Shown here: piece after piece, positions 3,439 to 60,356 of the stretch | Numbering within the stretch: position 1 is the first letter of the stretch | How the letters are laid out: each line of letters starts with the position of its first letter | From: a virus | UHGV virus genome: UHGV-0039337 | Reading direction: 5' to 3' (one strand) | Length of the DNA: 64,000 nt | The notes under the pieces: model-generated | What the model saw: the letters and a program-made list of their open reading frames with translations, nothing else | Databases searched by the model: none | What the model was told of the DNA's origin: nothing | Program-made: the position numbers and the translations under genes

Positions 3439-5139
3439 GTGATAAATATTAAAATAATAGAGCGTAAAGCTGATATAAATAAGGTAAATGAATTATCAAA
3501 TAAATATAATATATCAAAAGATATAGTTAGTTTTCTATTAGGGCGTAATGTTCCTGATAATATAATTCCATTACTTGTAGCTAAAAATGAGATAGATTTA
3601 TTACCATATGATTCATTGACTAATGTAAAAGAAGCAGCAAGTATTATTGCTAAACATATAGAGAATGATTCCAATATATTTATATACGGAGATTATGACG
3701 CAGATGGAGTAAGTGCAACTTATATCATGTATCAAGCTTTAGTGGAACTAATAGAAGCTAACCTACAATACAATAGTAGCGTATATTATCATTTACCTAA
3801 TAGAAGTGAAGGATATGGACTTAATATAGATTGGTGTAAAGCTATTCCTACTAATAACTCATTAGTTATAACAGTTGATAATGGAATAACAAAAAGAGAA
3901 GAAGTTGAATATTTAAAAACTAACAATATAGAAGTGTTAATAACTGATCATCATAAACCACAAAAAGGTATGATACCAGACTGTACAATAGTAGATGCTC
4001 ATCTATATGATACAGATAATATAAATTCTTGTGGATTATGTGGCGCTGCAGTAGCATTTAAAATTATAGCTCAATTATATAAAAACTATGGATACGACTA
4101 TTCTTATATAAAAAAATATGTAGCACATGTAGGTATAGCTACTATAACAGATGTAATGCCTTTTACAGAAGAGAATGTAATATTTATTAGTAATGCTTTA
4201 AAATATATAAATGATTATCCTTATAGTAATGAAGAATACGCTCCAGTAACAGAATCTATATATTATTATGCTGAATCAAATAAAGGTAGTAAAGTTACTC
4301 CAAAAGACATAGCTTTTGGATTTGGTCCTCAAATAAATAGTTGTGGTAGAATGGGAGATATTCAAGTAGCTATGGATTTTATGTTAGCTACAGATGAAGA
4401 AGAACTATCAAATGTATTTAAAACAATGTGTCGACTTAATGACGACAGGAAAAATAAAACTAGCTTAAATATGGTTACTATACAACCTCCAAAGCTAACT
4501 GATTTAGCATTAATAATAAAACTTAATAATATAGAAGGTATAGCAGGATCTATAGCAAGTAATTTGTGCGAACAATACAATATGCCAGTAATAGTATTTA
4601 ATAACGAAGATGAAATATTATCCGGTAGTGCAAGATGTCCTGAATGTTATGATATGCAATGGTTATTGAATAATACAGATCATGTACTAACATTTGGTGG
4701 ACATACTAGTGCCGCAGGATTAAGCATAAAAGCTAAAGACTTTAAAATATTTAAAGACTCTTTTAATAAAGCAGTATCTAAAGCTCCCGTATCCGTATCA
4801 ATAGATGATACAGTATATGTAGATAAGATATTAACATCGTCTGATTTAAATAAATATACTATAACTCAATATGATAGCGTATTATTCTTTAATGAATTTA
4901 CTAGACCTATATATGCTTTAGAAAATATATACATAAAAGGCTATCATTTATCTAAAAATAATCCTAACAATATATGCTTTCATATTAAAACGAAAACTAA
5001 AGAAGTTAAGGTATGGTGTTGGGGTTACAAAGATAAATATAAAGCATTAGGTGAACCAAGTTTAGTAAATATAATAGGTTCTCTTGAAATATTTAACGGT
5101 ATGTTTGTAATAAATATATTAGATATAGAAGCGGTTTAA
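3439..5139 (+). CDS. RecJ-like DHH/DHHA1 phosphoesterase (single-strand DNA exonuclease)
   Basis: GTG start with a GGGAG RBS. DHH motifs are present: IYGDYDADGVSAT (motif I/II) and LITDHHKP (motif III). The length is RecJ-like. Confidence 0.7.
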   Translation: MINIKIIERKADINKVNELSNKYNISKDIVSFLLGRNVPDNIIPLLVAKNEIDLLPYDSLTNVKEAASIIAKHIENDSNIFIYGDYDADGVSATYIMYQALVELIEANLQYNSSVYYHLPNRSEGYGLNIDWCKAIPTNNSLVITVDNGITKREEVEYLKTNNIEVLITDHHKPQKGMIPDCTIVDAHLYDTDNINSCGLCGAAVAFKIIAQLYKNYGYDYSYIKKYVAHVGIATITDVMPFTEENVIFISNALKYINDYPYSNEEYAPVTESIYYYAESNKGSKVTPKDIAFGFGPQINSCGRMGDIQVAMDFMLATDEEELSNVFKTMCRLNDDRKNKTSLNMVTIQPPKLTDLALIIKLNNIEGIAGSIASNLCEQYNMPVIVFNNEDEILSGSARCPECYDMQWLLNNTDHVLTFGGHTSAAGLSIKAKDFKIFKDSFNKAVSKAPVSVSIDDTVYVDKILTSSDLNKYTITQYDSVLFFNEFTRPIYALENIYIKGYHLSKNNPNNICFHIKTKTKEVKVWCWGYKDKYKALGEPSLVNIIGSLEIFNGMFVINILDIEAV

Positions 5140-5160
5140 TCAACCGTTTCTTTTTTTATG
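5132..5160 (+). terminator. Terminator-like hairpin after the recJ-like gene
   Basis: CGGTT-TAATCA-AACCG stem followed by TTTCTTTTTTTAT. Confidence 0.4.
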
Positions 5161-5197
5161 CTATAATATATACTAAATATAAAATGAAAGCTAGGGG

Positions 5198-8100
5198 ATG
5201 ATTAATATAAGTTTTATACATTGTCATGTTCATACAATTTATTCTATGCTCGACGGCTACTGTAAAATAGATGACTTAATAGAAAAAGCCAAAGAATATA
5301 ATATGTCTTCAATATGTATAACTGATCATGGTACACTTGCAGGTATTTATGAGTTTAATGATAAATGCAAAAAAGCAGGATTAAAACCTATATTAGGTAT
5401 TGAAGTATATCAAACTCATGACATATCAAAAATAATACTGCCAGTAGAAGAAAGAAAAAAGATAGCTTGGGATAAATATTTAGAAATAAACAATATAACA
5501 GATGAAAAAAGCCTAGGCAAGCTAACTAATAAGAAAAAAGCAGAACTAAGTTCAGAATATATATATGATACCAAAGGATATCATTTAATCTTAATAGCAA
5601 AAAACCAAACAGGTTGGAATAATCTCGTTAAGTTAAGTAGTAAAGCAAATGATATAGCAATGTTTAATGGTAAAGGGCATATAGATTATAATTTATTAAA
5701 GCAATATAGCGAAGGATTAATATGCACTACAGCATGTATAAGTTCTATGTTTAATCATGCATTATCTAACAATAATATGGATAAAGCTGTTAAGCATATA
5801 AAAATATTATTGGATATATTTCATGATGATTTATACATAGAGTTACAACCTTTAGAATGGAATAAGCAGGTTGAAATAAATAAAAAAGCTATTAAAATAG
5901 CTAAACAATATAATATTAAAACTATAGCAACTAGTGATGTACATTATACCAATTATGAAGATGATTATGAACACGATATATTATTATGTATAGGTACTGG
6001 CAAAACATATAACGACCCTAATAGAATGAAATACGATCATGAATATTGGTTTAGAAATGAAAACGAAATGATAGATGGTTTTAATAGAAGTAATTATACA
6101 AGTGAAGAGATGCAAGCTATTAAAACTGCTATAAATAATACAACATTATTAGCAGATACTGTAGAAGATAATATACAAGTAGGTAGCGATCATGAACTAT
6201 TACCAGAGGTAGATGTACCTGAAGGTTATACAACTAAATCATGGTTAAAGCGTCAATGCTGGACTAACTTATATAAATATCTAACAGACAATAACTTAAT
6301 GGATAAACGTTATATTTATGAGTCTAGATTAAAAGAAGAACTTGATGTAATAATAACTAAAGGTTTTGCTGGATATATGTTAATAGTTCAAGACATAATA
6401 AATATTGGTCAACAAGCTGGTTGTAGTTTTGGGCCTGGACGTGGTAGCGTTGGTGGTTGTCTTGTAGCCTTCTTGCTCGGCATAAGTAAAGGAATAGATC
6501 CTATTGAATATGGATTACTATTCTTTAGATTTTTAACTGTTTCTAGAACTGCAAATCCAGATATTGATAGCGACTGCAGTCAGGTTGATAGACAAAAACT
6601 ATTAAGAATAATAAATAATAAGTATCATAACACTAATGTTACTCAAGTAGGTACATTAACTACATTAGGAGTTAAAAATGGCGTTAAAGATGTCATGCGT
6701 GTATTGAATTATAGTTTTGCAGAATCAAATGCTGTATCTAAAAAATTAGATGAAATATATGCTGAACCAGATTTATCTTTTAAAAAGCTTGATAGTTTTG
6801 AATCTGAAGATCCAGAATTATATAAAAAATATAAAGAGTTAGAATCAGAATATCCTAACGTATTTAAGTTAGCACGTAAATTTAATGGATGTCCTAGAAA
6901 TATGGGAGTACATGCTGGAGGTGTAGGTATAACACCTACTCCAATAAATGATATATATCCTACTAGAAATATTGATGGTAAAAAAGTTACTGTATGGGAA
7001 AAAGATACAATAGAAAAAGCAGGAATCGTCAAAATAGATATGTTAGGATTAAAAACTATATCTGTAATAGAATTATGCTTAAAGTTTATAAAAAAGAATC
7101 ATGATATAGATATATCATTAAACGAACTTTATAATAATAAAGAAATACGTAATGATTCTAATGTATTTAATATGCTATCAGAAGGTAAAACTGATGGTGT
7201 ATTTCAATTTGAAAGTAACTTATTTAAAAATGCTTGTAAGAACGTTAAACCTACAGATATAAATGACTTAATAGCAATTACTGCATTTAATAGACCTGGC
7301 CCATTATCTGCCGGCTTCGATAAGAAATATGCTAATAGAAAAAATGGATTAGAACCTGTAAATTATCCTTTAGGTTGTGATGATATATTAGGTGATACAT
7401 ACGGATGTCTATTATATCAAGAACAATGTATGTTAATATCAAAAAAGGTAGCTGGCTTCGATGATAATCAGGCAGATACATATTTAAGAAAATCACTAGC
7501 CAAAAAGAAACGTGCTTTAATAGATCTTTGTAGACAGTGGTTTATATATGGAAAACCTGAACATGACGAATACGGATCACCTATAGAAGGTGGTATTAAT
7601 AGAGGATATGATGAACAAGAACTTAAAGACTTTTTCGATGAGTTAGAAGGGTACGCTAGTTACGTTTTTAATAAAAGTCATGCAGCGAGTTATAGTCTTC
7701 TAACAGTAATTAGTGCATGGTTAAAATATTATTATTCTGAAGAATTCTTTGCAGCTCTTCTTACTTATTCAGTTGATGAAAAAGCTGATTTATATAATGA
7801 TATATTAAGTAAACAATATGACATACATATAACTGTACCAGATATAAAGAACTTATCTGAAAATTATAATCCAACACAAGGTAAAATAGCATATGGAATA
7901 TCTAAAATAAAAGGAGTAGGTGCTACAGCAATATCTACTATATTAAATGCAGGACCATATGAAAGTGTAGAAGATTTTATAACTAAAGTAAATAAGTATG
8001 ATAAAGCACGTGGTAGTAAAAAAACTGTTAATAAAACAGCTATTATTGCTCTTATTAAAGCAGGAGCTTTTGACTCCTTGGGTGAAACTAATAGATTTAA

Positions 8101-8509
8101 ATTAATTAATCAAGCTTATAATGCACGTAAAGATAAAGACGAAAGACTTGATGAATCTACATGGTCAAAATCTTGTGCTCAAGCATTAGAAATAGAGGTA
8201 TTAAATACATCTATAACTTATCCATTAATATTTAATTCTGCTATGGATAAAGATATTATAACTTTAGAAAACTGTAGAATAATAAACGTTACTGAGAAAA
8301 AAGATAAAAATGGTAAACTTATGGCTTTTGTAAAAGTAAAAGTTAATGATATAGAACCAGTAGATGTTGTAGTATTTAGTAGTTTATATTTAAATAATTA
8401 TGATTTATTTGATGTTAGATATGGCGATGTTATAAATATAACAGGAGAAAAAGACGGAAAGAAATTAAAATTTAAGAAAGGAAGAAGAGAAAAGAAAGAA
8501 GATAATTAA
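5198..8509 (+). CDS. dnaE: DNA polymerase III alpha subunit, DnaE-type (copy 1), with an N-terminal PHP domain
   Basis: Carries the PHP motif HCHVHTIYSMLDG, the catalytic region GPGRGSVGGCLVAFLLGIS, FNKSHAASYSLLTV..YY, and a C-terminal OB-like tail. The length is 1103 aa. Confidence 0.85.
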   Translation: MINISFIHCHVHTIYSMLDGYCKIDDLIEKAKEYNMSSICITDHGTLAGIYEFNDKCKKAGLKPILGIEVYQTHDISKIILPVEERKKIAWDKYLEINNITDEKSLGKLTNKKKAELSSEYIYDTKGYHLILIAKNQTGWNNLVKLSSKANDIAMFNGKGHIDYNLLKQYSEGLICTTACISSMFNHALSNNNMDKAVKHIKILLDIFHDDLYIELQPLEWNKQVEINKKAIKIAKQYNIKTIATSDVHYTNYEDDYEHDILLCIGTGKTYNDPNRMKYDHEYWFRNENEMIDGFNRSNYTSEEMQAIKTAINNTTLLADTVEDNIQVGSDHELLPEVDVPEGYTTKSWLKRQCWTNLYKYLTDNNLMDKRYIYESRLKEELDVIITKGFAGYMLIVQDIINIGQQAGCSFGPGRGSVGGCLVAFLLGISKGIDPIEYGLLFFRFLTVSRTANPDIDSDCSQVDRQKLLRIINNKYHNTNVTQVGTLTTLGVKNGVKDVMRVLNYSFAESNAVSKKLDEIYAEPDLSFKKLDSFESEDPELYKKYKELESEYPNVFKLARKFNGCPRNMGVHAGGVGITPTPINDIYPTRNIDGKKVTVWEKDTIEKAGIVKIDMLGLKTISVIELCLKFIKKNHDIDISLNELYNNKEIRNDSNVFNMLSEGKTDGVFQFESNLFKNACKNVKPTDINDLIAITAFNRPGPLSAGFDKKYANRKNGLEPVNYPLGCDDILGDTYGCLLYQEQCMLISKKVAGFDDNQADTYLRKSLAKKKRALIDLCRQWFIYGKPEHDEYGSPIEGGINRGYDEQELKDFFDELEGYASYVFNKSHAASYSLLTVISAWLKYYYSEEFFAALLTYSVDEKADLYNDILSKQYDIHITVPDIKNLSENYNPTQGKIAYGISKIKGVGATAISTILNAGPYESVEDFITKVNKYDKARGSKKTVNKTAIIALIKAGAFDSLGETNRFKLINQAYNARKDKDERLDESTWSKSCAQALEIEVLNTSITYPLIFNSAMDKDIITLENCRIINVTEKKDKNGKLMAFVKVKVNDIEPVDVVVFSSLYLNNYDLFDVRYGDVINITGEKDGKKLKFKKGRREKKEDN

Positions 8510-8540
8510 AAGATAATTAAAAAAAAAGAAAAAGAAAAAA

Positions 8541-8564
8541 TAACCCGGAAGGGTTATTTTTTTA
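8541..8564. terminator. Bidirectional rho-independent terminator where plus and minus transcription converge
   Basis: UAACCC-GGAA-GGGUUA hairpin with a GNRA tetraloop, flanked by an A-run upstream and a T-run downstream. It sits between the plus-strand dnaE stop (8509) and the minus-strand gene stop (8582). Confidence 0.6.
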
Positions 8565-8581
8565 TGGTTTTAAAAAAAGAA

Positions 8582-8887
8582 TTATAAAGTATATATTAAC
8601 TCAATAATAGATGCTTTAGTTTCATCATCATATTTAGATCTTTTTATCACTTCAACTAAATCTTCTACTGGACTTATTTGCCATAAGTTATCATCAGACA
8701 TTACACTATATGTATTATCTTCGAATAATGCTTGTAATGTATATATACCTAATTCCTTATTTGATTCTGTGCGTACTGGCTTTATATCTATTATCTTACA
8801 TAATCTACTTTTATTAAAATTTGCCTTATCTATAGAATTCTCTAATTGTCCTATATGCAAATAAACTTTATCATTAATATTTAGCAT
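8582..8887 (-). CDS. Hypothetical protein
   Basis: 101-aa ORF. Its ATG overlaps the stop of a tiny upstream ORF (ATGCTAA). Confidence 0.45.
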   Translation of the reverse strand: MLNINDKVYLHIGQLENSIDKANFNKSRLCKIIDIKPVRTESNKELGIYTLQALFEDNTYSVMSDDNLWQISPVEDLVEVIKRSKYDDETKASIIELIYTL

Positions 8888-8946
8888 GGTTTTTTACCAC
8901 CTTTTTTAGTGCCTTTCTTTCCGTCTTTTTTCTTTCCGCAAGCCAT
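8881..8946 (-). CDS. Tiny lysine-rich peptide (21 aa), speculative
   Basis: A GGTGGTG RBS is followed 6 nt later by ATG. The ORF is MACGKKKDGKKGTKKGGKKPC, and its stop overlaps the next start codon. Confidence 0.2.
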   Translation of the reverse strand: MACGKKKDGKKGTKKGGKKPC

Positions 8947-9573
8947 TTATATCACCACCAATTTAGATATCTTTTCTTAATGGTCTACAAGGAATAGGCT
9001 ATGCCGACTATTCCCTATAGACAAACTGTACAGTTATTTATTGAGGTATCCTCGCTAACTCGAGGATACTATTCTATGGCATCTGCCGTTTCTTTTTACA
9101 GTCGGTAATGTGCCATCACAGTTTGAAAATAACTTAAAAGCTACCAAGTTTCTGGACTCAAACCATTACCTACTTTTCTTTGTATAGTGAGAAAAAGCTT
9201 AAAAACTCACATATATATCACTTTTAAAAAATATGTATTTCAAAAAAGTTGCCCGTGATATCATAATTCTAATGAGTTGAGATACATTTTGCTCTCTTAA
9301 GTATAGTTTAAAAATATCTACCACAATTCAATACGAATGAAAGGAGGGAGCCACCGATTGGCTCCCTAATAAATATGGAGGGAGATATTATAAATCAACT
9401 GCAATTAAACTTAATTGCTTCCTAGGTACAGTTACTGTTGTAACTAATTTACTAGGCTCATAAGGTCGTTGTAACCTCATTGATAATAAAATTAGAAAGA
9501 GAAAATATAAGAGCTTTTTGCTCTCTACTAACTATTACTTAATAATATCTGTCTAATAGATTGTTTTGTAGAT

Positions 9574-12500
9574 TTATTTATATTTAGTCCAAAAACTTTG
9601 ACTAGTTATATTAACATCGTCTTTACAGAATTTAGTTACTTTATAAGTTGTTCCTCCATTTTTAACATAGTCTCTCCACAAAGTTTCACTATGAGCCATA
9701 TGCTTATAACAATATGTAACTGAAGCTGATACTCCTTTGCCAGAACCCCAAGATACTACGTATACGTCCATACGTCTATTACCATAATATACACTAGCTG
9801 GACAACAAATATCAAAATCAAATCCTGCATTACCAGTATCAGTTACAGTAAATATACAACTAGGATTTGCTGTTTGTCTACCTTTAAAGTATGGAATATA
9901 TACTTTAGTTCCATATGGAAGGTTATGAGAAGCTACCGTATTACATCTATTACTATGTAATCGATTACCTAAAGCATCGTTATATCCGCCTTCTCCTTCT
10001 TTGTATTGAGTACACTTAGATCCTTTAAGAGCCATTATGTATTTTACTCCATCTATTTCGCCTGCAGTTTCATCTATACCTGAACCGCCATTTTTAGAAG
10101 ATTTATCTGCGTTTATTAATGATTGTGGTCTTAGGAAATAACTATGTCCTGCATGTTTTCCTGTTACATAATAGTCTGCTTTTTCATATTTAATTCCATC
10201 ACGAGGACTTGAACTATGAGCTATCATTCCGTCTCCCATATAGATAATAGCATGTGTAGCTTTACATTCACTACCATTTGATAGATTATTTTTATCTATT
10301 AAACCTGGGCCATATGTCATTAATACATCTCCTGGTAATGCTTTAGCCATACCTTCTTTATCAGCGAACCATATCTTACCGCCTTTTTTAACTACTTCTT
10401 GTGCTAAAGTATTTCCCCCTGGATTTCCTTGTCCTGTGCTTCCGCTATAGAAATCAGAAAGGCCTGCTGCTTTATAACAACATGATACAAATGATGTACA
10501 GTCATAACCTATTTTACCATCAGAACATTTTTGTGGTTTATCATGGTCTACAGTTCTTGGGCTATTAGAATATTTAGCTTTTCCATCTTTGTATTCTTGT
10601 ACTATAGTTTTAGCCATTTCCGTAATTTTCTTTCTTATTGTTGCTCCGTTACCGTTTACTGAATCATCTATATCAGAGTTACCGTTATTATTACCATTGC
10701 CATTACCAGCACTATTAGCAGTTAATCCTATATTGCCTTTAATTCCATTATCGTATTCATAACCAGTTCTATTAAGATTAAAGTTTTCAAAGTAGAAATC
10801 TAATGAACTGTATTTATTTATTTGGACACTATCATCTTTTTCTCTTGTGTCTATCCATTCACCAGAAGCTATAATATCATATGTCTTTTTATCGATGCCC
10901 ATTTGTGTAGACTTTTCAGCTGAAGCTACGTTATCTTCTCCTGGGTCACCTTTTTGATTTTTATACTTAGCTGCTATTTTTTCTGTAGGATAGGCTTTAA
11001 TATCTGGACGTTGTAAATCAACAGATTCTTCTGTCCAATCCATCATAAATAAATAATCGCTAGGAAGTAGTTTATCTAATTCTTTAGCTCGTTCTTCTTT
11101 ATCAGTATATTTTTTCTTTATTTCTTTTTCTTTTAATTTTTTGTCAGCTGTTTGCCATTCATCTATCAAACTCTTTGGTTTTTTCTTTTCTTTTTTATTA
11201 GTATTAATATAATTATATCTTGAACTTCTTTTTTCTACATCATTTAAATTTTTGAAATCATCTAATGACATATAAGACATTTGCATATCATCAAGTATAG
11301 CTGAACCGTTAAATCCTGTTTCATCAAGTATATCATATATTGCACCTACGATAGGTTCATATCTAGTACATGTTAAACATTGATCCATGGTAACAGTTGC
11401 ACCGTCATGTACTCTATCGTCTCTTAAACATCTTATACATTTATATTTTCCCATTACACTTTGTCCACCATAATATACACAGTTTATATTAACACGTGAA
11501 GCCATACGTCCTAGATATCTAGTTACTGTTGATAATATGTTTTCTATACGTACTAATCTTTGTTCAGTCATCTTAGATTGATTAATAGCCATATCATTAA
11601 GCATTGCAAAATTCTTAGCCATAGGATGTGCTATCGGACATCCAGGATGATTACAACTATATACTCTATTTTCTATTTCATCTATTAAAACTTTAGGATA
11701 ATGATTCTCTAAGTCAGTTATCTTATCGTCATATGGATAAGGGTCCATATAGTTTACTGGTTTACCACTAGATTTTTTAGTTTTCTTATCTAGTAATTTA
11801 TAGTCATATGAGTATGATTTATCAAGTGCATCTTCAAGAGATATAGAAGCATCTTCTATTGTTGTTAATGGTATACTATTTTTGCTTAAAGAATCATAAG
11901 TACTAGTAGTATATTTAGGAGGTATAACTAAGTCTGGATATATAGGATCAACCTTACAGTCCATATTCTTATATAGTACACTTAATTCATCTACTGGTTT
12001 AACACAGTGATCTACAGAACCAGGACCTGTTTCTACTACTTTATAACGTATCATATTATCAGTAAAAGTATAAATCTTTTCAGTTAATACTTCTAAACGA
12101 GAATCTGAAGTTAATCCTACAGTTTTAACTTCTACCAAATCTTTATCATATGGTTCAAATGAGTTAGTATATATGTCTATATTAGCTGCTGTAGAATATG
12201 TCATTATTTCTTCATATTCTTTTTGTGTTATAATAGTTTTTATATCTGGTTGTGTAGCGTTAGCTTCAGTAGGTTTTGCTACTTTATATATCATTACACC
12301 ACCATTATCTATAGATGTAGTACCTAATCCAGATAATGTTATTCCTGATGTACTGCTACTATCTCCTATTGTATTATCTATGTTATTCTTATATATTTTT
12401 TCTATTGTTATATCATCTATATATAAATCAAACTTATTTTTGCTTCCTATGAATAGTTTGTAATTACTATCTTCTAATCCAGTAAATATACATCCTATAC

Positions 12501-15500
12501 GTGTCCATATAGTATTTGATATTCCTGATATATCTACTTCTTTTTCGTATTTAACTTTATTTGATTTATCTAATAGTTTTATTGATATATTTGTCTGTTT
12601 TAGTTTGTCTGGATCTAGTGGGCCACTATTTTCATCTTTTTGTGTGACTTGTTTTATATAAAATAATACTCTTAAATAACATTTGCTATCTTTTGCGTCA
12701 AAGTTTTGTGATATACCTGATATCTTATTGCTCGCATTTTTTATACGTGCAAATCCAGTTTTTCTATAAGGCCAATGTCCTTTAGTTCCCCATTCTGGGT
12801 TTGTTATACGTGAGAATTCTATAGAACCCATTTTTGACCACATTGATATATCGTCTTCTTCGAAATCAGCATTTTTTAATGATACTAAGTCAAGATTTCC
12901 TGACGAATTATTATTTTCTTCTTCGCCGTTATCCGGTTTTATTACTTCATCTCCAGGATCTTTTCCATTAGATACTTTAAAATCAGAGTTATCAAATGTA
13001 ACAGCATATGCTTTAACGTATCCAGATGTATCGTTTGTTTTTATTTTATATAAGCCTAGTTTTACATCTGTTCCTATAATAACTACTTTAGTTTGCTCAC
13101 TAAGGTCTTTATTTTGTTTTGCTAATTTAGTGTCTTTATAATAATCTGTATTTTCAAATTTAATCCAACATGTTTGTCCAACATAACTTTGAGATACTTC
13201 TCCATGATTTTTACCTATTACTACCACGTCTTCTTTTAATACATAACCAGTTTTCTTATTAAATTTACATTTATAATATGTGTTCTTTTCTCCGGTTATT
13301 TCTAATTCATCACCAACTGCTAATTTTGCTACTTTGCCTGCTTTTTCTTTTGCATCCTTTTTCATTTCTGTTCCTGATGTATTACCTACATAACAATACT
13401 GCTTATCGTTTTTAGTTTTCGGAGCTCTCATAGCAAATGTAGATGCATGATTTTCTTCTTTTGGTTCATCATGATGGTCACTATCTCCAACCATAAGTAT
13501 TTCAGTTACCAATGTAATATTAGTTGTAGATTCTATTATGCTTTTTATATTATTATAATATGTTATATAATTATTTAATGTTATTCCATCAGAGTTAACG
13601 ATAGAATCTTTTAAATATCCCTCTGAATCCATTAAGTCTTTAGATATATCTATAAAATAAAATCCATTTTTTATACAGTATGATTTTAAATTATTATTGT
13701 ATTTATCAAGAGCTTCATTAAAAGCATCTGCACTTTTATAATCTTGCTCTGAATATCTTTTTCCACAATGAGGTAATTTAGCTACATATACAGGAACGTT
13801 ATTATATAGCTCTTTTATTTTATTTAAAAATCTTACTGTATCATTAGATTCTAAGTTTTCTTTTAATCTGTTATATCCTAAATGTATATATACAAATGAG
13901 ACGTCTTTATTCATTCCTTCTAGTCTGTCTATATTCTTAGTAGGATTGTAATAATAAGAAGAATCTTTAGATATTGCAGCTTCACATATACTATATGTTT
14001 CACCTGTACTGCTTACAAAGTAACTTCCTTCTAATTCATTACTATCTCCTACTATTAGATCTCTCATTTCATATTCCCAGTTATCTCCTATAAACAATCC
14101 AGGATATTGAGTTGGATATATTTCTTCGGTATCGTTATCATCATCTATAGTAGCAATAGCATTAACAGCTCTTTTCCTTGCGGCAAAAGTTTTGACTGCT
14201 GCAGATTTTGCATCACTGTTAGCACTTATGTGACTATCAGTATTATTTTTCTTACCATTTGGAGATACATAATTTAATGGATTTACTGGTGTACCTTTTG
14301 TACCTGAAAAATCTTTATGTACTTCAAAATGTAAGTGAGGTCCGGTACCTATACCAGAGTTACCTACTTCTGCTATCTTATCGCCTTGTTTAACTGATTG
14401 CCCTACTGTTACTATATATTTATTAAGATGTTGATATAATGTTCCTATTCCGTTTCCGTGATCTATTACTACGTAATTACCACGTCCACCATTATATCCT
14501 GTTTTTGCTACAACTACTTTACCAGAATCAGCTGCTATAACTTTTGTACCTTTAGATGCTGGTATATCTAAGCCTCTATGAAATGTAGAAGCTCCAGGAG
14601 TTGGCGCTTTTCTTGGTCCAAAATTTGAAGATATTCTAGTTGATCCAGGTAATGGCCATATAAAATTACCTGAGCCTTTCTCATTTCCGTCACTGTTATT
14701 GTCGTTATTATTGTTGCTATTGTCATTATTACCATTGCCATTGTTTCCAGGTACTATTACTCCATTAGGAAGTGGAGCTGTTTCTATAAAGTTATTAGTA
14801 TTTTGGTTCGTTAATAGATTATTAGGTATATAAGTCGATGTAACTTTACCATACTTTTTATTTAACCAACTTACTTGTTTATCTACTTCTTTACAAAATG
14901 CTATCCATTTATCCTTGTCTAAATACAAGAATGGTGACGGCGCTCTATTAAGATCAAATTCACGCCATAATTGTTTACTAGTAAAGCCTTCATCATATAA
15001 TGCTTTAGCGCATTGTTCTATTAATTTTTTCTCTGTTTTAGGATAATCAACATTACCTGTTTTTTCTACTAAATCATATTCATCATAGAAGAATTCTCCT
15101 ATACTTAATGTGTATTTAGGATGTTGATTATTAAATAGATTGGCGTCTATATATGTATGCGTATTGTTATCAACACTCGCAAAACATATTTTCCCTTTAT
15201 CTACTTTATCCCATGTTATAACTTTTTTATCTGTAGTATTAGATACTGTTTTATTTGTATTTTTTGTGTTTACAAATGCAGCTCTAGTCAAAGCAAACAT
15301 AGTTGTTTCGACTTGTGGGAAAGGATTCTTTTTATATCCTCCTCCAGGTTCTACATAATCTAATGGATCTACATACTTACCATCTATCAGCATTCCAAAA
15401 TGTAAATGCATTAAAGGATTTGACACTGTAACACCTGTTGTACCTATACATTGACCTTTTGTTACAGTGTCTCCTTCTTTTACCTTTATCTCATCAAGTG

Positions 15501-17415: not shown

Positions 17416-17831
17416 TATTTATCCCTCTTATCTGTTGAAGATGCAGTAATTGTATTATCTAATATTTGTTGTCTTATTTTAGCGGCAGCTTGAGAGTCAT
17501 GTATGCCTAAATTAGCATAATCTATATCCCAAGTGTCTTTATCTTCTTCATACCATTGCTTTCTATCTAACAATGTTTTATTCATATATTCTCTTTCTGC
17601 TTCACGTAATGAAGTTATATAATCAAAGCCTTCCATATATTGTTGCGCTTTAGCGTAACCTTCTTCTCTTTTCTTTTCCCATTTTCTATCATGAGCATAA
17701 TTAAAATCTATTATAGCTCCATCTGTTGTGTCGATAAAGTACTCATCGCCATAAGCTAATAACTTATAGTAAGGAATATCGCATCTGATGCATTCATTAG
17801 GTTCTGTTATTCTACATAATATTAATGACAA
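17415..17831 (-). CDS. Hypothetical protein
   Basis: 138-aa ORF. Its stop overlaps the ATG of the giant gene (TAATG). Confidence 0.45.
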   Translation of the reverse strand: MSLILCRITEPNECIRCDIPYYKLLAYGDEYFIDTTDGAIIDFNYAHDRKWEKKREEGYAKAQQYMEGFDYITSLREAEREYMNKTLLDRKQWYEEDKDTWDIDYANLGIHDSQAAAKIRQQILDNTITASSTDKRDK

Positions 17832-17896
17832 AAAATCGCCTCCATTTCATAGTAATCGTATATAATATATATTACTGAAATGAAGACGATTATATC

Positions 17897-20800
17897 TTAT
17901 CTGGATATTTTAAGTAATTTTTTAGAGATAGTTGGTTTAGGTGCTCTATTAAATAGACTACGTAATTTTCTATGACCTCTATTATCCATAGGGATTTCTA
18001 TACGGTCAGGTTTTCTATTATGTTTCTTTTCTGTATTGCTTACTTGTTTTATATGAGTAGCTGATTTAAATAAATTTTTATCTACTGTATTTTTAATTCC
18101 GTCTACTACGTTTGAAGCTATTTGAGTTAATACATCTTGGTTATCACTCATGGCACGTAATCCTTCTTCACTAAATTTACCTTCCATTGATTGTGCGGCG
18201 TGTAATTTAGTAGCCATTAGAGATAGTGTAGCTTCTTGAGTAGTACCTTCATAATATAGGAAATATACAGTTATATCTTTAGTTTGTGACAATCTCCATG
18301 ATCTTCTTGACGCTTGTCTCATAGTATTTAAATTATATCCTAACTGATAAAATACTATAGTAGTAAAATCTAATAGATTTAATCCAGTTTCTATTAAAGA
18401 TGGATTACATATTAACACATCGTATTTGTCTTTAATTAGTTTATTAATAAATTCTTCACGCTTTTCTGCTTTAACAGATGCTTTTAACTCAGCACTTTTA
18501 TATCCATATGAATTTATTAGTAATCTTATATGGTCTCCTAGATTTGTAGTACCTACATCATTATAATATACTAATACCTTTTCTCCTGCTAATACTTTAG
18601 TATTTATTATATCTAATAGTGCTAAGTCTTTATTGGTTGTAAATTCTTCTATTTCTGGTGCAGCAAATAATAGATTACCATCTTCAGTTGCTTCATCTTC
18701 TATGCAATGTGGAGCATCAGGAATAGTAAGCATACGTCTACAATATTGTCTAAGATATTTTCTATTATTTATATCATTATCTGTAGCCATACGTTTTATG
18801 AATTGTTCATAACTATTATAATATTTCAATGTTGTTTCATCCATTTCTATACTATATGGTATTTCTGTATAATTAGGTAGTCCTTCTGTCATATCTTCAA
18901 GAGACACAAAGACTGTATTGTTTAATAGAAATTTAGTAAATACTAATGATGATATACCAGGAAGTAATTTAGAGCTTCTTTTTTTTACTGTTCTTCCATC
19001 TATTATGGAAGTAGTACTATTAACTCCATATATTCTATTAAATTCAGCTTCATCTTCGTAGTTAAATCCTTCTCTTTTCATAGATTGAGGAAGCAATCTA
19101 TATAATAAATAATACATACTATTTACGAATCCGTTCATTAATGTACCTGTCATGGTAATGGTTTTCTTGCATGATTGAGCTAAAATATGAAAGGCATGTC
19201 CTTGTTCTGTTTTACCTTTATAGCTTTGAGCTTCATCAAAAATTCCATAATCAAACACATTATTCATACGTTTTTTAATATAACTAGCTATAGGATACTT
19301 TTTAGTACCTATATATTTATTATTTACTGTGCCGTTTCTAATTAAACTATTATGTTGATCACTTAAGTTTGCAAATAATTCAGAGTCTTTACGCGTCATC
19401 TTAATTCCAGAATTTAAGTAATGATTCATTAATATTTCTATTGTGTCTTTATGAATCCATCCTGATTTACCTAATTTAACCCATTGTAAATTATCATCAT
19501 CTCTATTTACTGCAGTCCATAATTTATTATTACATTTTTTCTTTCTATACGCTTCTTCTTTAAAGTCATATACTTTAATAGTGTTAGTACATATATCATT
19601 AATAGAGTTTTCTTTAGTAAAATCAGTTAGATCTAATGGTACTATTCTTTTTACTTTACGTGATGCACCTGGGTAAATTGGTACAGTAACATACTTAGTA
19701 AGTACTTGTCCACATTCAGGGCATACAAATACATTATTTGCTTTTACCATGTTGCCATGTTCATTTTTGTAGTATCCAATCTTTTTAAACAATACAGCTG
19801 GTCTATTTCCATATCCTATTTTGGCACTTTCTTTAGATAATATTACAAAAGAATTTTCTATTTTATATGGATCAGTTAATATGTCTTTAATAGCTAATAA
19901 TTCTTCTAAGTTGTGTATTATATACGATCTACTATTAGGAACAAAACGTGCTACTTCATTTTTCCAGTTATTAACTAAGTGTGACGGACACATTACAAGA
20001 GTATTAAATCCTTTATTCTTATTAGCATTATGAACATAACAAGCTGCGGAAGCCATAAGAGTTTTACCACTACCCATTTCTCCGACTAAGAACGTATTAC
20101 TATTAACGTTCATATTATTCACTATAGCTTGTATTGCTGAACGTTGTGCTTCATATAAATTAACACCAGCATTATAATATGCATAATCATCTATGTTATA
20201 TAAATAATTATCATAAGTATCTTCACCCGGTATAAATTTAGGTCTAAAAGATGTTTGAATCTTTTTAGCTAATCCTTCTCCAAATAATTGCAAATAATTA
20301 TCTATTCCTGTACAGTTATCTAGTATTGTAGAATGTTCATTCGATCCCTTGATATTAATAACTTCACTATTAAGCCCATCACGTACTATTTCTTCTAATA
20401 TATGTCGTGATCCAATTAATACATAACATAGTAAAGGTTGTTTTCCCTCTAATGCATAATATTCAGTATCTAATTGATTAAATCTCAATTGTTCTTCTAA
20501 TTTCTGTTTTATATATGGTATCCATTCTCTAAGTATAGGTATAGATGAATATTTAACAAGACGTTTGTATAACTCATCTTCTATATTAGATTCGGAATTA
20601 GTAAATATATATGATGTATAATTTTCATGGTTATCTTTAGTAACATAACTATCATTTGCATATGCTATCATGTGCACATAATCAGAATTAGGCATTTTCT
20701 TTGTTTTAATTACATATTTACTACTTGATATTATATAATATCTATTGTTTGCATATATAGTATGTGTTTTATTGTTATTAAGCATAGGTTTAATCATATT

Positions 20801-20935
20801 AATAGTAGAATTATACCCAATCATAGATATGAATATTGCATGTCCATAATTATTTATGATTATTGTATCGGCTTTACAGCCACTAAAACCTCCAATAGAT
20901 ATATTAATATAATCGTTCATTCTTTCTGCTGTCAT
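17897..20935 (-). CDS. SNF2-like superfamily 2 helicase/ATPase with a large N-terminal extension
   Basis: Motif I is GEMGSGKTLMASAA and motif II is GIFDEAQSYKG (DEAQ). Motif III is TMTGTLMNG, and motif VI is QASRRSWRLSQTK. An internal CPECGQVL segment is zinc-ribbon-like. Confidence 0.6.
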   Translation of the reverse strand: MTAERMNDYINISIGGFSGCKADTIIINNYGHAIFISMIGYNSTINMIKPMLNNNKTHTIYANNRYYIISSSKYVIKTKKMPNSDYVHMIAYANDSYVTKDNHENYTSYIFTNSESNIEDELYKRLVKYSSIPILREWIPYIKQKLEEQLRFNQLDTEYYALEGKQPLLCYVLIGSRHILEEIVRDGLNSEVINIKGSNEHSTILDNCTGIDNYLQLFGEGLAKKIQTSFRPKFIPGEDTYDNYLYNIDDYAYYNAGVNLYEAQRSAIQAIVNNMNVNSNTFLVGEMGSGKTLMASAACYVHNANKNKGFNTLVMCPSHLVNNWKNEVARFVPNSRSYIIHNLEELLAIKDILTDPYKIENSFVILSKESAKIGYGNRPAVLFKKIGYYKNEHGNMVKANNVFVCPECGQVLTKYVTVPIYPGASRKVKRIVPLDLTDFTKENSINDICTNTIKVYDFKEEAYRKKKCNNKLWTAVNRDDDNLQWVKLGKSGWIHKDTIEILMNHYLNSGIKMTRKDSELFANLSDQHNSLIRNGTVNNKYIGTKKYPIASYIKKRMNNVFDYGIFDEAQSYKGKTEQGHAFHILAQSCKKTITMTGTLMNGFVNSMYYLLYRLLPQSMKREGFNYEDEAEFNRIYGVNSTTSIIDGRTVKKRSSKLLPGISSLVFTKFLLNNTVFVSLEDMTEGLPNYTEIPYSIEMDETTLKYYNSYEQFIKRMATDNDINNRKYLRQYCRRMLTIPDAPHCIEDEATEDGNLLFAAPEIEEFTTNKDLALLDIINTKVLAGEKVLVYYNDVGTTNLGDHIRLLINSYGYKSAELKASVKAEKREEFINKLIKDKYDVLICNPSLIETGLNLLDFTTIVFYQLGYNLNTMRQASRRSWRLSQTKDITVYFLYYEGTTQEATLSLMATKLHAAQSMEGKFSEEGLRAMSDNQDVLTQIASNVVDGIKNTVDKNLFKSATHIKQVSNTEKKHNRKPDRIEIPMDNRGHRKLRSLFNRAPKPTISKKLLKISR

Positions 20936-20951
20936 TTTTTTTCACCTCCTT

Positions 20952-22415
20952 TTATGTTAAATTATAAAATGTTCCATCAGCACCTAATGCTGTTATCTGT
21001 ACTTTATTTCTTATTGTATCTGTAGATTCTGTAATTATTCTTCCATTTTGTGTTGATTGTTCGGTAACCCTATCTGTTTCTTTAATAGTCATACCTTTTA
21101 TTACGTGGCATATTTCACCACCTTCTTCTACTATACCATCAAGTGAACCTGATGATAAAATAAGTCCTATTTGTCCTATATTAAAAGGAAGTAAGGGACT
21201 CTTGTCTTCTTCTTCTATATGTTCATTTACTGATTTGTAAAATTCATCATATAATCCATCATTTAGTATAGCATCATCTAGTTCTTGTTTATCTAGTATA
21301 CTACCTCTGAATATTTTAATTTCTTCTTCTGGTAAATTAATAGTATATGATTCAGTTAAATAGTTTAATAAATCATCATATTTTATTCTAGATAATCTAT
21401 TAAATTCATCGCTATAAGATGGATTTGATGATTTAATACCTATTATAGTTACATATTTAAGTGCATGTCGGTTTTTATTCATATCATCATCAAATTGTGG
21501 ATCGGTACATTTAAATATTTGAATGTTCTTGAGATTCTTAGCTAAGAATAATTTAAAACTTGGAGATATATCATAAAATGGTAAATTAAGAATGAATATA
21601 CCGCCTAATTTTAAATAACGCATACTATTAGTAATTTGTATATCTTCATTAGTAACTGCTAATCTGCCATCAATCTTTTTAGTGGTATTTATTGTTAATC
21701 TAGGATTAACATATACTATATCGAATACATTGTTACTAATAATAGAGCCTTTAATAGATCCTAAAGCTACTCTATCCATATTATCTTTAGCTTTATCGGA
21801 GCCATAAGTCTCTTCACTTAATCCATAAGTCTTAACTGTTATATTATTATTTCTTTCTAGTTTATATTTTAAAAAGTATTCGTCTTCTCCTTCTCCACAT
21901 TGTATAGAGAATATATTTAATGATTTATTAGTTTTTATGTTGTCTGTTATTTCTGTTATAAAATCTGGATGCATTTTATATATATTTGTATTATCTTCTC
22001 TTATTTCTTTTGCTGCATATGATAAATTATAGCTACATAAATTATAACATTCATTAATTGCATTATTTATAGTATTTACACATGTATCATTAAATGCTTC
22101 TTTAATAGTTTGTATAGTTTCGCATTCCATAACTGTATTTAAAAAAGACTCTATCGTATTTTTATGTGATTGTATTCTCTCAAATACTGTATAGTCATCA
22201 TCAATAATACACAATGTATAATTAAATAGTCTTATACATTCTGTAGCATGTTTATATATAATAGAGCGTGATTTATTTATATCTTCTTTATCTGCTAAAC
22301 TAATTGTAATGTATGATCTAAGAGTATTAAGTTTAATTACTAACTCTTGTGATGGTCTGTAAAATGAAGTTGTTATATATATCACTCCTTTTTCTAATAA
22401 TAAAGGAGCGTACAT
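20952..22415 (-). CDS. Hypothetical protein with degenerate amino-methyltransferase-like motifs
   Basis: IFSIQCGEGEDEYFL is motif I-like. About 60 aa later, DIVYVNPRL resembles the D-hh-x-NPPY motif IV but carries NPRL. Any catalytic role is uncertain. Confidence 0.4.
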   Translation of the reverse strand: MYAPLLLEKGVIYITTSFYRPSQELVIKLNTLRSYITISLADKEDINKSRSIIYKHATECIRLFNYTLCIIDDDYTVFERIQSHKNTIESFLNTVMECETIQTIKEAFNDTCVNTINNAINECYNLCSYNLSYAAKEIREDNTNIYKMHPDFITEITDNIKTNKSLNIFSIQCGEGEDEYFLKYKLERNNNITVKTYGLSEETYGSDKAKDNMDRVALGSIKGSIISNNVFDIVYVNPRLTINTTKKIDGRLAVTNEDIQITNSMRYLKLGGIFILNLPFYDISPSFKLFLAKNLKNIQIFKCTDPQFDDDMNKNRHALKYVTIIGIKSSNPSYSDEFNRLSRIKYDDLLNYLTESYTINLPEEEIKIFRGSILDKQELDDAILNDGLYDEFYKSVNEHIEEEDKSPLLPFNIGQIGLILSSGSLDGIVEEGGEICHVIKGMTIKETDRVTEQSTQNGRIITESTDTIRNKVQITALGADGTFYNLT

Positions 22416-22420
22416 ATAAC

Positions 22421-25400
22421 TTACGCTCCTATACTATTTATTATTATTTTATTATCATCTGTAAACTTTCCTTTAAAGTTTATAGTTTTGTCTTTTTTTA
22501 AATTACTTTTATATTTATCTAGATTGAATAATAAAGCTTCATAATTACCTTCTTTAGTATCTAATGATATAAAAGCATATCTCTTTCCTGATTTAGCTTT
22601 ACGTTTAGTCACTTTTGTTATAATAGCTTGGCCACTTACATAAATATCATTATATTTAAGGTCTTCCAGATTACAACACTTATTATGAATATAATTAGCT
22701 TGACATAAAATTAATTCTATCTCATCTTCTGATGCATATAGTTCCAGGTTAGTATCTTTATTAATGAATATAGAGTATTTAGGTGGATCTGGATGTTTTT
22801 TCTTGGCTGAAAGATAATATAATTCTTCATATAATTCTATAACATTAGAGCCAAATGCTCCTATTGCTATCATGCTATTTAATGCTTTTGTATTACATAT
22901 ACTTTTATTTACATGTTTATATATATGAGCCACTAAAGAATCATCTTTATTTTCTTTTTCTTTATTTAGCCAATAAGTAGCAGCATTATAAGCGTTCTCA
23001 GATACATTTGCAAGGCAGCAGAAGCCGAGTCTAATCCCCTCTGTTTCTACTGTACATTTGTATTTTGATTTAGTTATATCAAGAGGTAGAAATTTAATAC
23101 CTACTTTCATACATTCATTTTGTATTGTTTTAAATTTAGCTTTACGTTCATCAGTTTTACCTGATTTATTATTATACATACAAGTTAAAGTTGCCGCATA
23201 AAATTCTTTAGGATAGTAAATTTTATAATATGCTGTTTCATAACAAGTTAAAGCATAAGCTACAGCATGAGATTTGTTGAAACTATATTTCCCTGAATCT
23301 AATATTAATTGAAATATTTTTTCAAATATATCATCAGTCATAATATTTTTACTTAACTCTTTTAATTCTGCTTTATATGAAGCTATTTTATCAAATTTTT
23401 TTTTGCTAGATGATTTCATAAGCGAATATGCTTCATGCAATGGCAATCCCATATTTGCACAACATTGCATTAATTCTTCTTGATAAATCATAACTCCATT
23501 AGTTGTCTTAGTAGCTTTATCATAAGCTGGATGTATATATTCTATATTTTCTTTGCCTTCTTGTATTTTCATATAATGTTCATCGAGCCCTGATTGAATA
23601 CAAGGGCCACGGACAAGAGCAAGACAATCAGCAAGTTGTTCTATATTACGTGGGTTTAATCTTCTCATGCGTTGTTTGTAAGTATTACTGCCTATTTGAA
23701 ATAGCCCTGTAGTATTACGAGAACAGATTAAATCCCATACTTTTTTATCATTTAATGGATCAAATTCTATATCTATTTTATGACCTGTAAGTTTTTCACA
23801 TTCGCTTAATATACATAAAGTATTTAATCCTAAATAATCATATTTTACTAAGGCCTGACTTTCTGCATCATGTAAATCAAGGGCTGTAGCATTTAATTCT
23901 TTTTTGTCTTGTCTAACCATTGGTGCTACATCAGATACTTTAGATTTAACTATTAATGTACCTGCTGCATGTATAGAAGTATGACATGGTAAACCTTCAA
24001 GCTTCATAGCCATTTCAAATACTTCTGGATATATTTCTTGCCACTCTCTAAGTTCTGGTACTATCTCTAATGATTCTTCTATTGATAAATCGCTTTGCTT
24101 TTCTGTGCCATCTTCAGATTCTTCATATACACATTGAGGTATTAGTTTAGCTATTTTATCTTCGGTCTTTAAGTCTATATTATATAATTTGCATACGCTT
24201 CTTATTGATGATCTTGCTTTACGTATACTAAAAGTAGATACAGCTGCACAATGATCAAGTCCATAAGTATCTAAAGTATACTTAAACATAATATCTCTAT
24301 AGTCACTAGGCACATCTATATCTATGTCAGGGTATTGTGCCCTTGCGGTGTATACTTAAAAATCTATCAAACATAAGATTATATTTAATAGAATCTACTT
24401 TGGTTATTTGAAGTAAATAAGCAACAATAGATCCGCATACGCTGCCTCTTCCAGGGCCCATTTTTGCTCCAATCTTATTCATATATTGTATTAGATCTCT
24501 TGTTATTAAAAAATAAGAACTAAATCCTAAATCATCTATAACTTTAAGCTCTTCATACATTCTATCAACGTATTGTGCTGGATTTTTAATTTTATATTGT
24601 ATTTGATCTAATCTTTCTAAACATAATTTTTCTATATAAGTTTTAGGAATATAACCTGTAGGACATTCAAATTCTGGAAGGTTTAACTCTTCTTGGTTGA
24701 AATCATATGATTCAACTTTATTAGATAAGTCCATAGTATTGTCTAATGCTTGATTAATTATATCTGCATTATACAATTCACTATTAAAAGAATTAAAGAT
24801 TTCATCTCTAGACATCATATAATATATTTTATCTGCATATATACTTTCATCTTCATTTTCTGGTGCTTTTAAATTACGCGTAATTCTTATATGAAAATCA
24901 TGAGTTTTCCAATCTTCCTTATTTATATAATGCACATCATTAGTAGCAATGAGTTTAATGTTTTTCTCTTCTGCTATATTAATCATTGCATTATTAACTT
25001 TAATTTGTTCATCAAAATTACCTGGTTGAATTTCTAAATATAAGTCATCTCTGAACATATTATATAATTCTTCAATATGATTAATAGCTTGTTCATTTTC
25101 ATTGTTTATAATAAGTTGAGGGGCATATCCTCCTACACAAGCTGTAGTACAGATAAGCCCCTCAGTATAGTCTTTTATATGTTCTAAATCTATACGTGGT
25201 TTATAATAATAATATTCAACAGATGCATCTGATACTATTTTCAATAAGTTAGATATGCCTGTTTTATTTTTAGCTATTAATACCATATGATATAACTTTT
25301 TATGTTCACTGTCTTTAATAGTACAGTCTTCACATAAATATATTTCACAGCCTATAAGTGGTTTAATATTATTGTTTATACACTCATAATAGAATCCATA

Positions 25401-25577
25401 CATATTACTTAAAGATCCGTGATCTGTTATAGCTATGGATTTCATATTAAGTTTTTTAGCTTTAGCAATTATATCTTTATTTGTAGCGATGGAATCTCCT
25501 ACCGATCCTTTTGTAGTATGCAAATGAGTTATGCAATAATTATTATAATAAGAAGTCATCGTTATCATCTTCTTCAT
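22421..25577 (-). CDS. dnaE: DNA polymerase III alpha DnaE-type (copy 2); the reading frame needs a +1 shift at CCC-TGA-C (plus 24326-24332)
   Basis: The N-terminal ORF (25577-24327) has PHP motif HLHTTKGSVGDS and GPGRGSVCGSIVAYLL, ending ...HRKGTIP-stop. The +1 frame continues directly as DIDIDVPSDYRD..., matching copy 1 (NPDIDSD), with FNKSHAVAYALTCYETAYYKIYYP downstream. The merged length of about 1046 aa is normal for DnaE. Confidence 0.65.
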
Positions 25578-60342: not shown

Positions 60343-60356
60343 GCTATCTTCCTCCC

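Follow-up and report, generated by a model that had tools for sequence, protein, structure and literature searches.

Analysis of a 64,000-nucleotide (nt) stretch of the virus genome UHGV-0039337, referred to here as the window, revealed that one of the two DnaE-type DNA polymerase III alpha genes that it carries, copy 2, is probably a maintained recoded gene, whose full-length product would be obtained only when ribosomes slip by one nucleotide (+1) at a CCC_UGA sequence located within the catalytic motif. The window belongs to the replication region of an uncultured human-gut jumbo phage of ~271 kb with 28% GC, and the pair formed by copy 2 and its intact counterpart, copy 1, is old and conserved across a jumbo-phage family. 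The initial annotation had described two polymerases on opposite strands, each with a PHP domain and the GPGRGSV and FNKSHA motifs, and a frameshift in the second one. All these elements were recovered at the positions given in Table 1 (GPGRGSVGG and FNKSHAASY in copy 1; GPGRGSVCG and FNKSHAVAY in copy 2), and the frameshift is real, although the initial annotation had not identified it as a probable maintained +1 shifty stop.

The break in copy 2 falls at position 98/99 of the palm profile. Its frame-0 open reading frame (ORF) ends in ...FDRFLSIHRKGTIP* and alone would give a termination product of 416 amino acids (aa); the +1-frame part contains positions 98-260 of DNA_pol3_alpha, the finger domain, HHH_6 and a weak OB fold, and the trans-frame product comprises 1051 aa. 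On the minus strand the junction is ...CGC AAG GGC ACA ATA CCC TGA C ATA GAT ATA GAT GTG..., where frame 0 reads RKGTIP and then the stop, and the +1 frame reads (P)DIDIDV. The closest intact ortholog (L009/P0001, 88% aa identity; L and P numbers are handles of related loci and proteins) has ATA CCT GAC ATA GAT (IPDID) at this place, and its junction, ...GGCACAATACC-TGACATAGAT, is the same as that of the window except for CC instead of CCC. A second intact CC allele with identical flanks was found in L048. Because the intact alleles match over the whole stretch except for CC versus CCC, the lesion is, as judged from these alignments, a single-C insertion in the window lineage. In the +1 frame, a TAA codon is present only 30 nt 5' of the site, and no ATG, GTG or TTG precedes the Asp codons; hence, D417 and D419 could be translated only by ribosomes coming from frame 0. 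The heptanucleotide CCCTGAC occurs once in the window when both strands are considered, CCC represents 2.3% of the Pro codons, and TGA is used in 5 of 36 stops. Stop-codon reassignment was rejected, as the two halves lie in different frames, and so was an intein or intron at the window junction, where no intervening sequence is present.

According to the mechanism proposed here, the peptidyl-tRNA-Pro in the P site would re-pair from the rare CCC codon to CCU, keeping two or three pairs, while the weak UGA-C stop waits in the A site; the U would be skipped and reading would resume at GAC (D417). The slip would yield KGTIPDIDID, identical to the intact orthologs at the junction, with GTIPDIDIDVPSDYR as the predicted trans-frame junction tryptic peptide, and ribosomes that terminate instead would release a 416-aa PHP-containing fragment. 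CCC_UGA is especially prone to +1 shifts, with efficiencies of ~2% as a baseline in Escherichia coli, 15% in pheL and 60% with a nascent-peptide stimulator, and is used productively in the Listeria phages PSA, A118 and A500 and in some antizymes (PMC3082878, PMC5009743). In the terms of Atkins et al. (PMC5009743), the case fits best under compensatory frameshifting of a retained indel, with a savior indel as a possibility.

The evidence that the interrupted gene is maintained comes from its conservation. An identical 28-nt site was found in seven assemblies (the window, L001, L002, L013/L014, L015 and L047), which comprise five distinct variants. The frameshifted variants differ by up to 7.8% of their nucleotides, with pairwise synonymous divergence (dS) reaching 0.35-0.43, and contain no other indel or stop. 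In pairs at least 2% divergent at the nucleotide level, the ratio of nonsynonymous to synonymous divergence (dN/dS) was 0.03-0.14 before the site, in frame 0, and 0.04-0.10 after it, in the +1 frame. The strongest signal was obtained for the 450 codons right after the site, where the ratio of nonsynonymous to synonymous polymorphism (pN/pS) was 0.047 in the +1 frame (Fisher p = 5e-38), compared with 1.7 and 4.3 in the other two frames, which contain 47 and 65 stops. Constraint on the frameshifted alleles is at least equal to that on intact ones, as indicated by dN/dS values of 0.06-0.11 for frameshifted pairs versus 0.157 for the intact pair. Likewise, when frame 0 is used upstream of the site and the +1 frame downstream, the nine nearest variable positions (three upstream and six downstream) are synonymous third-position changes, save for one D-to-N replacement. 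The 622-aa C-terminal ORF form is represented by 30 distinct protein variants in 5 clusters, at least 19 of them on ~60 contigs (Logan, ENA and NCBI) that include contigs of 270-273 kb, and all matches to copy 2 with at least 95% identity are in this form.

These data do not bear out the suggestion in the initial annotation that copy 2 is decaying. A pseudogene created by a 1-nt insertion, with copy 1 as the sole working polymerase, would agree with the position of the stop exactly ahead of the catalytic Asp residues and with the greater divergence of copy 2 motifs compared with those of copy 1 (RPGP to RGPC, YQEQ to YQEE, and a degraded HhH GVG). However, the same divergent motifs are present in the intact orthologs, the allele is widespread, both halves are open in five diverged variants with dN/dS (0.05-0.11 in each half) as low as in intact orthologs or lower, purifying selection is strong in both frames and the catalytic Asp residues are kept. 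Since five variants retain the site with no further lesion and with low dN/dS, decay and sequencing error can be practically ruled out, and we regard decay as extremely improbable.

A cause acting at the DNA or RNA level, namely an assembly or sequencing artefact, a phase-variable C tract or transcriptional slippage, is also highly unlikely. It is true that a single base differs, that this base lies in a short homopolymer, and that the CC allele with identical flanks exists in other phages (L009 and L048). Nevertheless, the CCC allele was recovered in assemblies from at least six sequencing runs and from three data sources, on diverged backgrounds, and all other genes of the AT-rich window are free of frameshifts, among them ORFs of 2613 and 1103 aa. 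Known transcriptional slippage needs ~7-9 identical bases, and a run of three C is far too short.

Several observations weigh against a maintained recoded gene and must be set beside this evidence. The +1 ribosomal slippage itself is the step that we infer, and with a baseline of only ~2% for CCC_UGA in E. coli most ribosomes may terminate, in which case the 416-aa termination product may be the major species. RNA folding around the site disclosed no clear stimulatory element: the fold downstream of it is ordinary (z = -0.93), and a Shine-Dalgarno (SD)-like AAGGG located 7 nt 5' of the site is also present in the intact ortholog. A 7-bp stem (GGGCACA/UGUGCCU, 24307-24341 on the minus strand) encloses the site in a 21-nt loop (z = -2.1), but its 5' arm would sit inside the ribosome, unlike in a classical 3' stimulator, and the intact ortholog has the stem too. 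As for the conservation data, L047 does not differ from the window (100% identity) and could come from the same strain, so that five independent variants are available instead of seven. Furthermore, copy 2 is a recombination mosaic. In L013, the first 600 nt and the last 560 nt match the intact L007 with 99% identity, whereas the central part clusters with the frameshifted alleles; L007 itself has a centre that shares only 75-78% identity with every other sequence and contains the variant motifs GYGRGS and KYDYLAINNL. Part of the divergence behind the dN/dS values may thus stem from intact backgrounds. The key pN/pS test was limited to the central segment, where the frameshifted alleles cluster, and the value was still 0.047.

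The gene could also be truly split, with ORF1 (416 aa) and ORF2 translated apart, for instance if ribosomes reinitiated after termination, at GTG 24313 (14 nt beyond the stop) or at ATG 24289. The second piece would then lack D417 and D419, and the two pieces could act together or apart, in a non-catalytic or exonuclease-only role. Gene callers do predict the 622-aa ORF2, a start codon lies near the stop, and purifying selection by itself does not discriminate between one fused and two separate products; the stretch coding for DIDID is invariant, yet its 15 nt are too few to be informative. On the other hand, neither candidate start is preceded by an SD-like sequence, whereas most genes in the window have GGAG or AGGAG, and ORF2 would lose two of the three catalytic Asp residues kept by every intact ortholog. 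Moreover, the ATG start is disfavored by the variable sites that lie between it and the GTG, as these are synonymous in the +1 frame, and CCC_UGA_C is a textbook shifty stop that gives back the exact ancestral sequence. We therefore consider a split gene unlikely, and +1 recoding of copy 2 the probable explanation.

If translated in this way, copy 2 would retain the three catalytic Asp residues and a complete PHP metal site. Both copies scored above the cut-off of TIGR00594, the model for the C-family superfamily (787 and 672 bits for copies 1 and 2, versus 434), and neither reached a species-level equivalog cut-off, identifying them as divergent DnaE members. PolC models remained far below their cut-offs for both copies (168-183 bits versus 873-1043) and no DnaQ-like exonuclease domain was detected in either copy with Pfam, in agreement with the initial claim that a PolC-type proofreading exonuclease is lacking. 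The error-prone subfamily model NF004225 also stayed below its cut-off (420 and 379 bits versus 939), and canonical DnaE models scored above it. By phmmer, D417, D419 and D580 of copy 2 align with D401, D403 and D555 of E. coli DnaE (2hnh), the first two lying beyond the +1 shift, and D455, D457 and D614 of copy 1 occupy the same alignment columns. The catalytic Asp residues, whose loss from one copy, together with absence of expression, would have pointed to a pseudogene according to the initial annotation, are thus kept in each. Nine PHP residues of copy 1 (H10, H12, D19, H44, E69, H129, C180, D247 and H249) and nine of copy 2 (H18, H20, D28, H53, E78, H97, C147, D214 and H216), which we take to be the metal ligands (H, H, D, H, E, H, C, D, H), all align with those of Taq Pol III alpha. 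Thus, both copies are apparently functional, with complete polymerase and PHP active sites, and because both PHP domains keep a complete metal site, intrinsic PHP proofreading of the Taq or Mycobacterium tuberculosis DnaE1 type is possible in both, a point overlooked in the initial annotation, which would leave them with proofreading potential even in the absence of a PolC-type exonuclease.

The conserved motifs of both polymerases are hotspots for intervening sequences. An insertion of 1267 nt is present in the copy 2 ortholog of the frameshifted L002 and of the intact L048, and a second type, of ~820 nt, in L018, a member of a clade with 57% identity; they contain HNH ORFs of 301 and 164 aa, respectively. 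The L002 insertion matched RF00028 over the whole model, with the core strings kept, at 23.8 bits (E = 0.0015), a value below the gathering score of 50, so that it is described here as group-I-like only. Its precise removal restores the ORF, and its boundaries (exon ending in ...GGAT and intron in ...AAAG) fit the usual U and G ends of group I introns; in L018 the exon ends in ...CCAGAT and the intron in ...AATCG. The window copy 2 contains no such intron. Other members of the 57%-identity clade end at KYDYLG, the motif with the third catalytic Asp, truncations occur in copy 1 relatives at YLRKG and immediately before FNKSHA, and the intact copy 2 alleles P0002 and P0006 have the variant sequences GYGRGS and KYDYLAINNL at these motifs. 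This pattern motivates, without proving, the hypothesis of a link between the indel and a conflict with homing endonucleases.

In such a scenario, the extra C would be an adaptive savior indel that disrupts the target of HNH homing endonucleases, which invade the catalytic motifs of the polymerases of this phage family time and again, with low-level +1 slippage at CCC_UGA supplying enough polymerase; alternatively, it would set a fixed ratio between a free 416-aa PHP (exonuclease-type) protein and the full-length polymerase, as in the case of tau and gamma from dnaX. The savior-indel concept is documented for the thymidine kinase of herpes simplex virus (HSV) (PMC5009743). The HNH_3 intron of the 57%-identity clade is 3 nt away from where the extra C stands, on the downstream side, other interruptions occur at GS|IV (L002 and L048) and after KYDYLG, and the divergent sequence of P0002 and P0006 falls exactly at these motifs. 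This support is purely circumstantial, however, and L002 combines the frameshift with an intron 100 nt upstream, indicating that the indel does not stop all invasion. An adaptive role of the extra C is therefore put forward tentatively, as a possibility with rather low odds.

Genes interrupted by, or adjacent to, endonuclease ORFs were also observed elsewhere. On the minus strand, at 26253-27740, an HNH ORF (26793-27383) seems to divide the dUTPase gene into a 118-aa ORF (27384-27740) and a 99-aa ORF (26253-26552, profile 71-129); in the relative L007 the dUTPase is one ORF of 213 aa. The gene for the large subunit of ribonucleotide reductase is in two pieces on the minus strand (52535-52984, profile 1-76, and 49703-51589), between which lies an HNH_3+NUMOD1 ORF (51803-52333) with no Rfam intron match at the gathering threshold. 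A distantly clamp-loader-like AAA+ ATPase gene is split on the same strand into 40771-41811 (AAA 2-68) and 39046-39555 (AAA lid), parted by an HNH ORF (39874-40710). In the topoisomerase II region (57910-63748, minus strand), a LAGLIDADG ORF (61078-61941) lies between topoisomerase II-like pieces and an HNH_3+AP2 ORF is found at 63362-63748. The SNF2 helicase gene, intact in the window, is broken in the 99.5% identical relative L015 (9353-11895), where pieces of 291 and 184+ aa are separated by a 273-aa LAGLIDADG ORF.

Beyond copy 2, the two polymerases constitute a long-standing pair. Their identity is 28.6% by BLASTP (E 2e-113) and 31.9% over 1004 aligned columns in a MAFFT alignment. Each copy has its own large metagenome ortholog family, extending down to ~46-50% identity, and copy 1 orthologs with identities between 95% and 46% have intact ORFs. 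A copy 2-type ortholog (P0112, 50%) and a copy 1-type ortholog (P0189, 47%) were located on one contig of 286,990 bp, where the local gene order at each locus is as in the window: RecJ and then copy 1 in one case, and dUTPase, a small ORF, copy 2, a DUF6094-like gene, SNF2 helicase and a giant hydrolase in the other. It is because both orthologs share one 287-kb contig at only 47-50% identity that the pair is considered old and conserved, and the equal size of the longest contigs suggests that at least three further ortholog pairs co-occur likewise. In a neighbor-joining (NJ) tree, each family was monophyletic (bootstrap 195/200 and 200/200), and the distance between the two families was about that of each from bacterial DnaE; their sister relationship received 132/200 support (66%), which should not be over-read. 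The 29-32% identity, the separate monophyletic families and the co-occurrence in a relative at 47-50% identity thus uphold the earlier assertion that no recent duplication is involved. The 1446 GenBank phage records with a DnaE match contained 1456 matching places, so two DnaE loci per record are rare in that set.

The genomic neighborhoods of the two genes differ. The copy 2 module includes dUTPase, Gam, a DnaG-type primase and helicases of the UvrD and SNF2 types, and copy 1 comes after RecJ, a resolvase-like protein and a PD-(D/E)XK nuclease. RecJ was always found directly 5' of copy 1, and in the distant relative L017 the RecJ-like gene (8317-10008) overlaps the copy 1 ortholog by 8 nt, which suggests that this exonuclease and copy 1 are a coupled functional pair. 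L017 (15844-17953) also encodes a PriCT_1-type primase and a DnaB_C helicase near the copy 1 ortholog, and L016 (2801-3970) a DnaG-type primase together with UvrD and SNF2 helicases near the copy 2 ortholog, hinting at two primase/helicase/polymerase sets in a distant relative. Of the data at hand, gene neighborhood alone bears on the division of labor suggested in the initial annotation (such as leading versus lagging strand or early versus late replication), and the arrangement is compatible with two polymerase-plus-partner sets, like those of PolC and DnaE in Firmicutes.

The window as a whole is a dense DNA-metabolism region. Besides the features in Table 1, it encodes a DUF1064/resolvase-like protein and a PD-(D/E)XK nuclease near copy 1, a DnaG-type primase, UvrD- and SNF2-type helicases, Mu Gam, ribonucleotide reductase, thymidylate synthase, an ATP-dependent ligase, a UvsX/RecA-like recombinase, topoisomerase II subunits and several HNH and LAGLIDADG endonucleases. 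Its GC content is ~28%, with a uniform, strand-biased skew; GC and AT skew flip sign at ~8500-9600, where the plus-strand block, whose last gene is copy 1, meets a long minus-strand block. No tRNA gene was found in the window, and hence no phage suppressor or tRNA-Pro is visible there, and neither the window nor L002 gave a match to any Rfam family at the gathering threshold. A giant multi-hydrolase protein of 2613 aa (9574-17415, minus strand), with C39-like peptidase, phage tail lysozyme/SLT, two M23, GDSL-lipase-like and SH3 domains, is kept 3' of the copy 2 module in all relatives, where its length ranges from 1767+ to 2622 aa.

Relatives of up to 270-287 kb were found among human-gut metagenome contigs, such as those from Hadza samples, and include a lysis cassette. 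The Gram-positive type of the lysins and the base composition suggest that the host is probably a Gram-positive, low-GC bacterium, a Firmicute. No match to either copy was obtained with megablast against GenBank phages, and the best tblastn matches reached only ~30-34% identity for both copies, so that set contains no close DNA relative of this phage. Scans of IMG/VR returned three loci for copy 1 and a single distant one for copy 2, and an exact-pattern scan of IMG/VR gave no match. A scan of genome contigs yielded only bacterial chromosomal dnaE genes with 30-35% identity and no clue to the host.

Table 1. Positions of the polymerase genes, the shift site, adjoining genes and the group-I-like introns of related loci.
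Feature	Locus	Coordinates	Strand	Description
DnaE copy 1	window	5198..8509	+	single intact ORF, 1103 aa; Pfam PHP, DNA_pol3_alpha, DNA_pol3_finger, HHH_6
DnaE copy 2, whole	window	25577-22421	-	two ORFs in different frames; same architecture as copy 1
Copy 2, frame-0 part	window	24327..25577	-	416 codons + TGA; PHP and DNA_pol3_alpha positions 2-99
Copy 2, +1-frame part	window	22421..24328	-	635 codons + stop; begins DIDIDVPSDY (D417, D419), then D580
Putative shift site CCC_UGA_C	window	24326..24332	-	inside the PDxDxD catalytic motif
RecJ-like DHH/DHHA1/OB exonuclease	window	3439..5139	+	adjoins copy 1 on the 5' side
DUF6094 methyltransferase-like gene	window	20952..22415	-	directly 3' of copy 2
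SNF2-type helicase	window	17897-20935	-	next after the DUF6094 gene; order the same in all relatives examined
Group-I-like intron	L002	7439-8705		gene nt 1147/1148, GS|IV (Ser codon), GPGRGSVCGSIVAY stretch
Group-I-like intron	L048	~4235-5501		same position as in L002
Group-I-like intron, ~820 nt, HNH_3 ORF	L018	~6228-7047		between PD and VDLD; 57%-identity clade

Low-GC Gram-positive bacteria such as Bacillus subtilis use two C-family polymerases, PolC and DnaE. The phage pair resembles them in that two anciently diverged C-family polymerases are kept in one replicating genome, and differs in that both enzymes, known here from sequence, are DnaE-type with complete PHP metal sites. Two DnaE paralogs per genome are also found in Actinobacteria and Proteobacteria (DnaE1 and the error-prone DnaE2, the latter also called ImuC); nevertheless, both phage copies miss the NF004225 cut-off, their PHP sites are complete, and no imuA or imuB neighbors were seen in the loci examined. 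Among cultured phages, Moorella phage MTATph1, the Bacillus phages 019DV002, Blastoid and Andromeda, and Geobacillus phage GBK1 encode DnaE proteins with the same domains and 30-34% identity to each copy, but in the 60 best-matching records listed each has one matching place.

With regard to the shift, the prfB gene for RF2 is similar in its shifty stop, CUU_UGA_C, where UGA is followed by C as it is here. In prfB, the SD sequence acts at a spacing of 3 nt; copy 2 has no SD stimulator at that spacing and does not share the autoregulatory logic of RF2. The dnaX gene is comparable in that a replisome gene could yield two products (tau and gamma) per mRNA, although it uses -1 frameshifting or transcriptional slippage. 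Close parallels are the tsh genes of the Listeria phages PSA, A118 and A500 and the antizymes, which share the same hexanucleotide and a tRNA-Pro that can re-pair onto CCU; the Listeria phages are, in addition, low-GC phages in which CCC is rare (5% in Listeria versus 2.3% here; PMC5009743). Those shifts, however, lengthen a structural protein at its C-terminus or serve to regulate antizyme, whereas that of copy 2 would take place in the middle of the gene, within a catalytic motif, and would restore the ancestral frame after a recent 1-nt insertion. In this respect, copy 2 is more like the compensatory or savior cases described for the +1 insertion in nad3 of bird and turtle mitochondria and for G-run indels in HSV thymidine kinase (PMC5009743), in which a single-nucleotide insertion is likewise retained and translational +1 slippage is inferred to supply the functional product. 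It differs from them in its shallow time depth (dS ~0.4) and in the circulation of intact alleles in sister lineages.

The literature covered by our search contained nothing relevant on dual DnaE polymerases in phages or on a frameshifted phage Pol III alpha. As far as found, DnaE paralogs conserved as a pair throughout a phage family appear to be undescribed, and a compensatory frameshift in a bacteriophage replicative polymerase is not known to have been reported.

The phage DnaE pair offers a compact system for asking why two C-family polymerases are needed. Copy 2, if recoded as proposed, would provide a clean natural case of compensatory recoding outside mitochondria and endosymbionts, in a setting where the level of expression matters. 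For annotators, the implication is that, in metagenomic jumbo phages, a polymerase gene that looks split or frameshifted should not be dismissed as a pseudogene. A single locus would thus tie together recoding, mobile-element conflict and replication and, if the savior or ratio version were true, the shift would add a regulatory layer to a replisome with two DnaE paralogs and separate partner modules.

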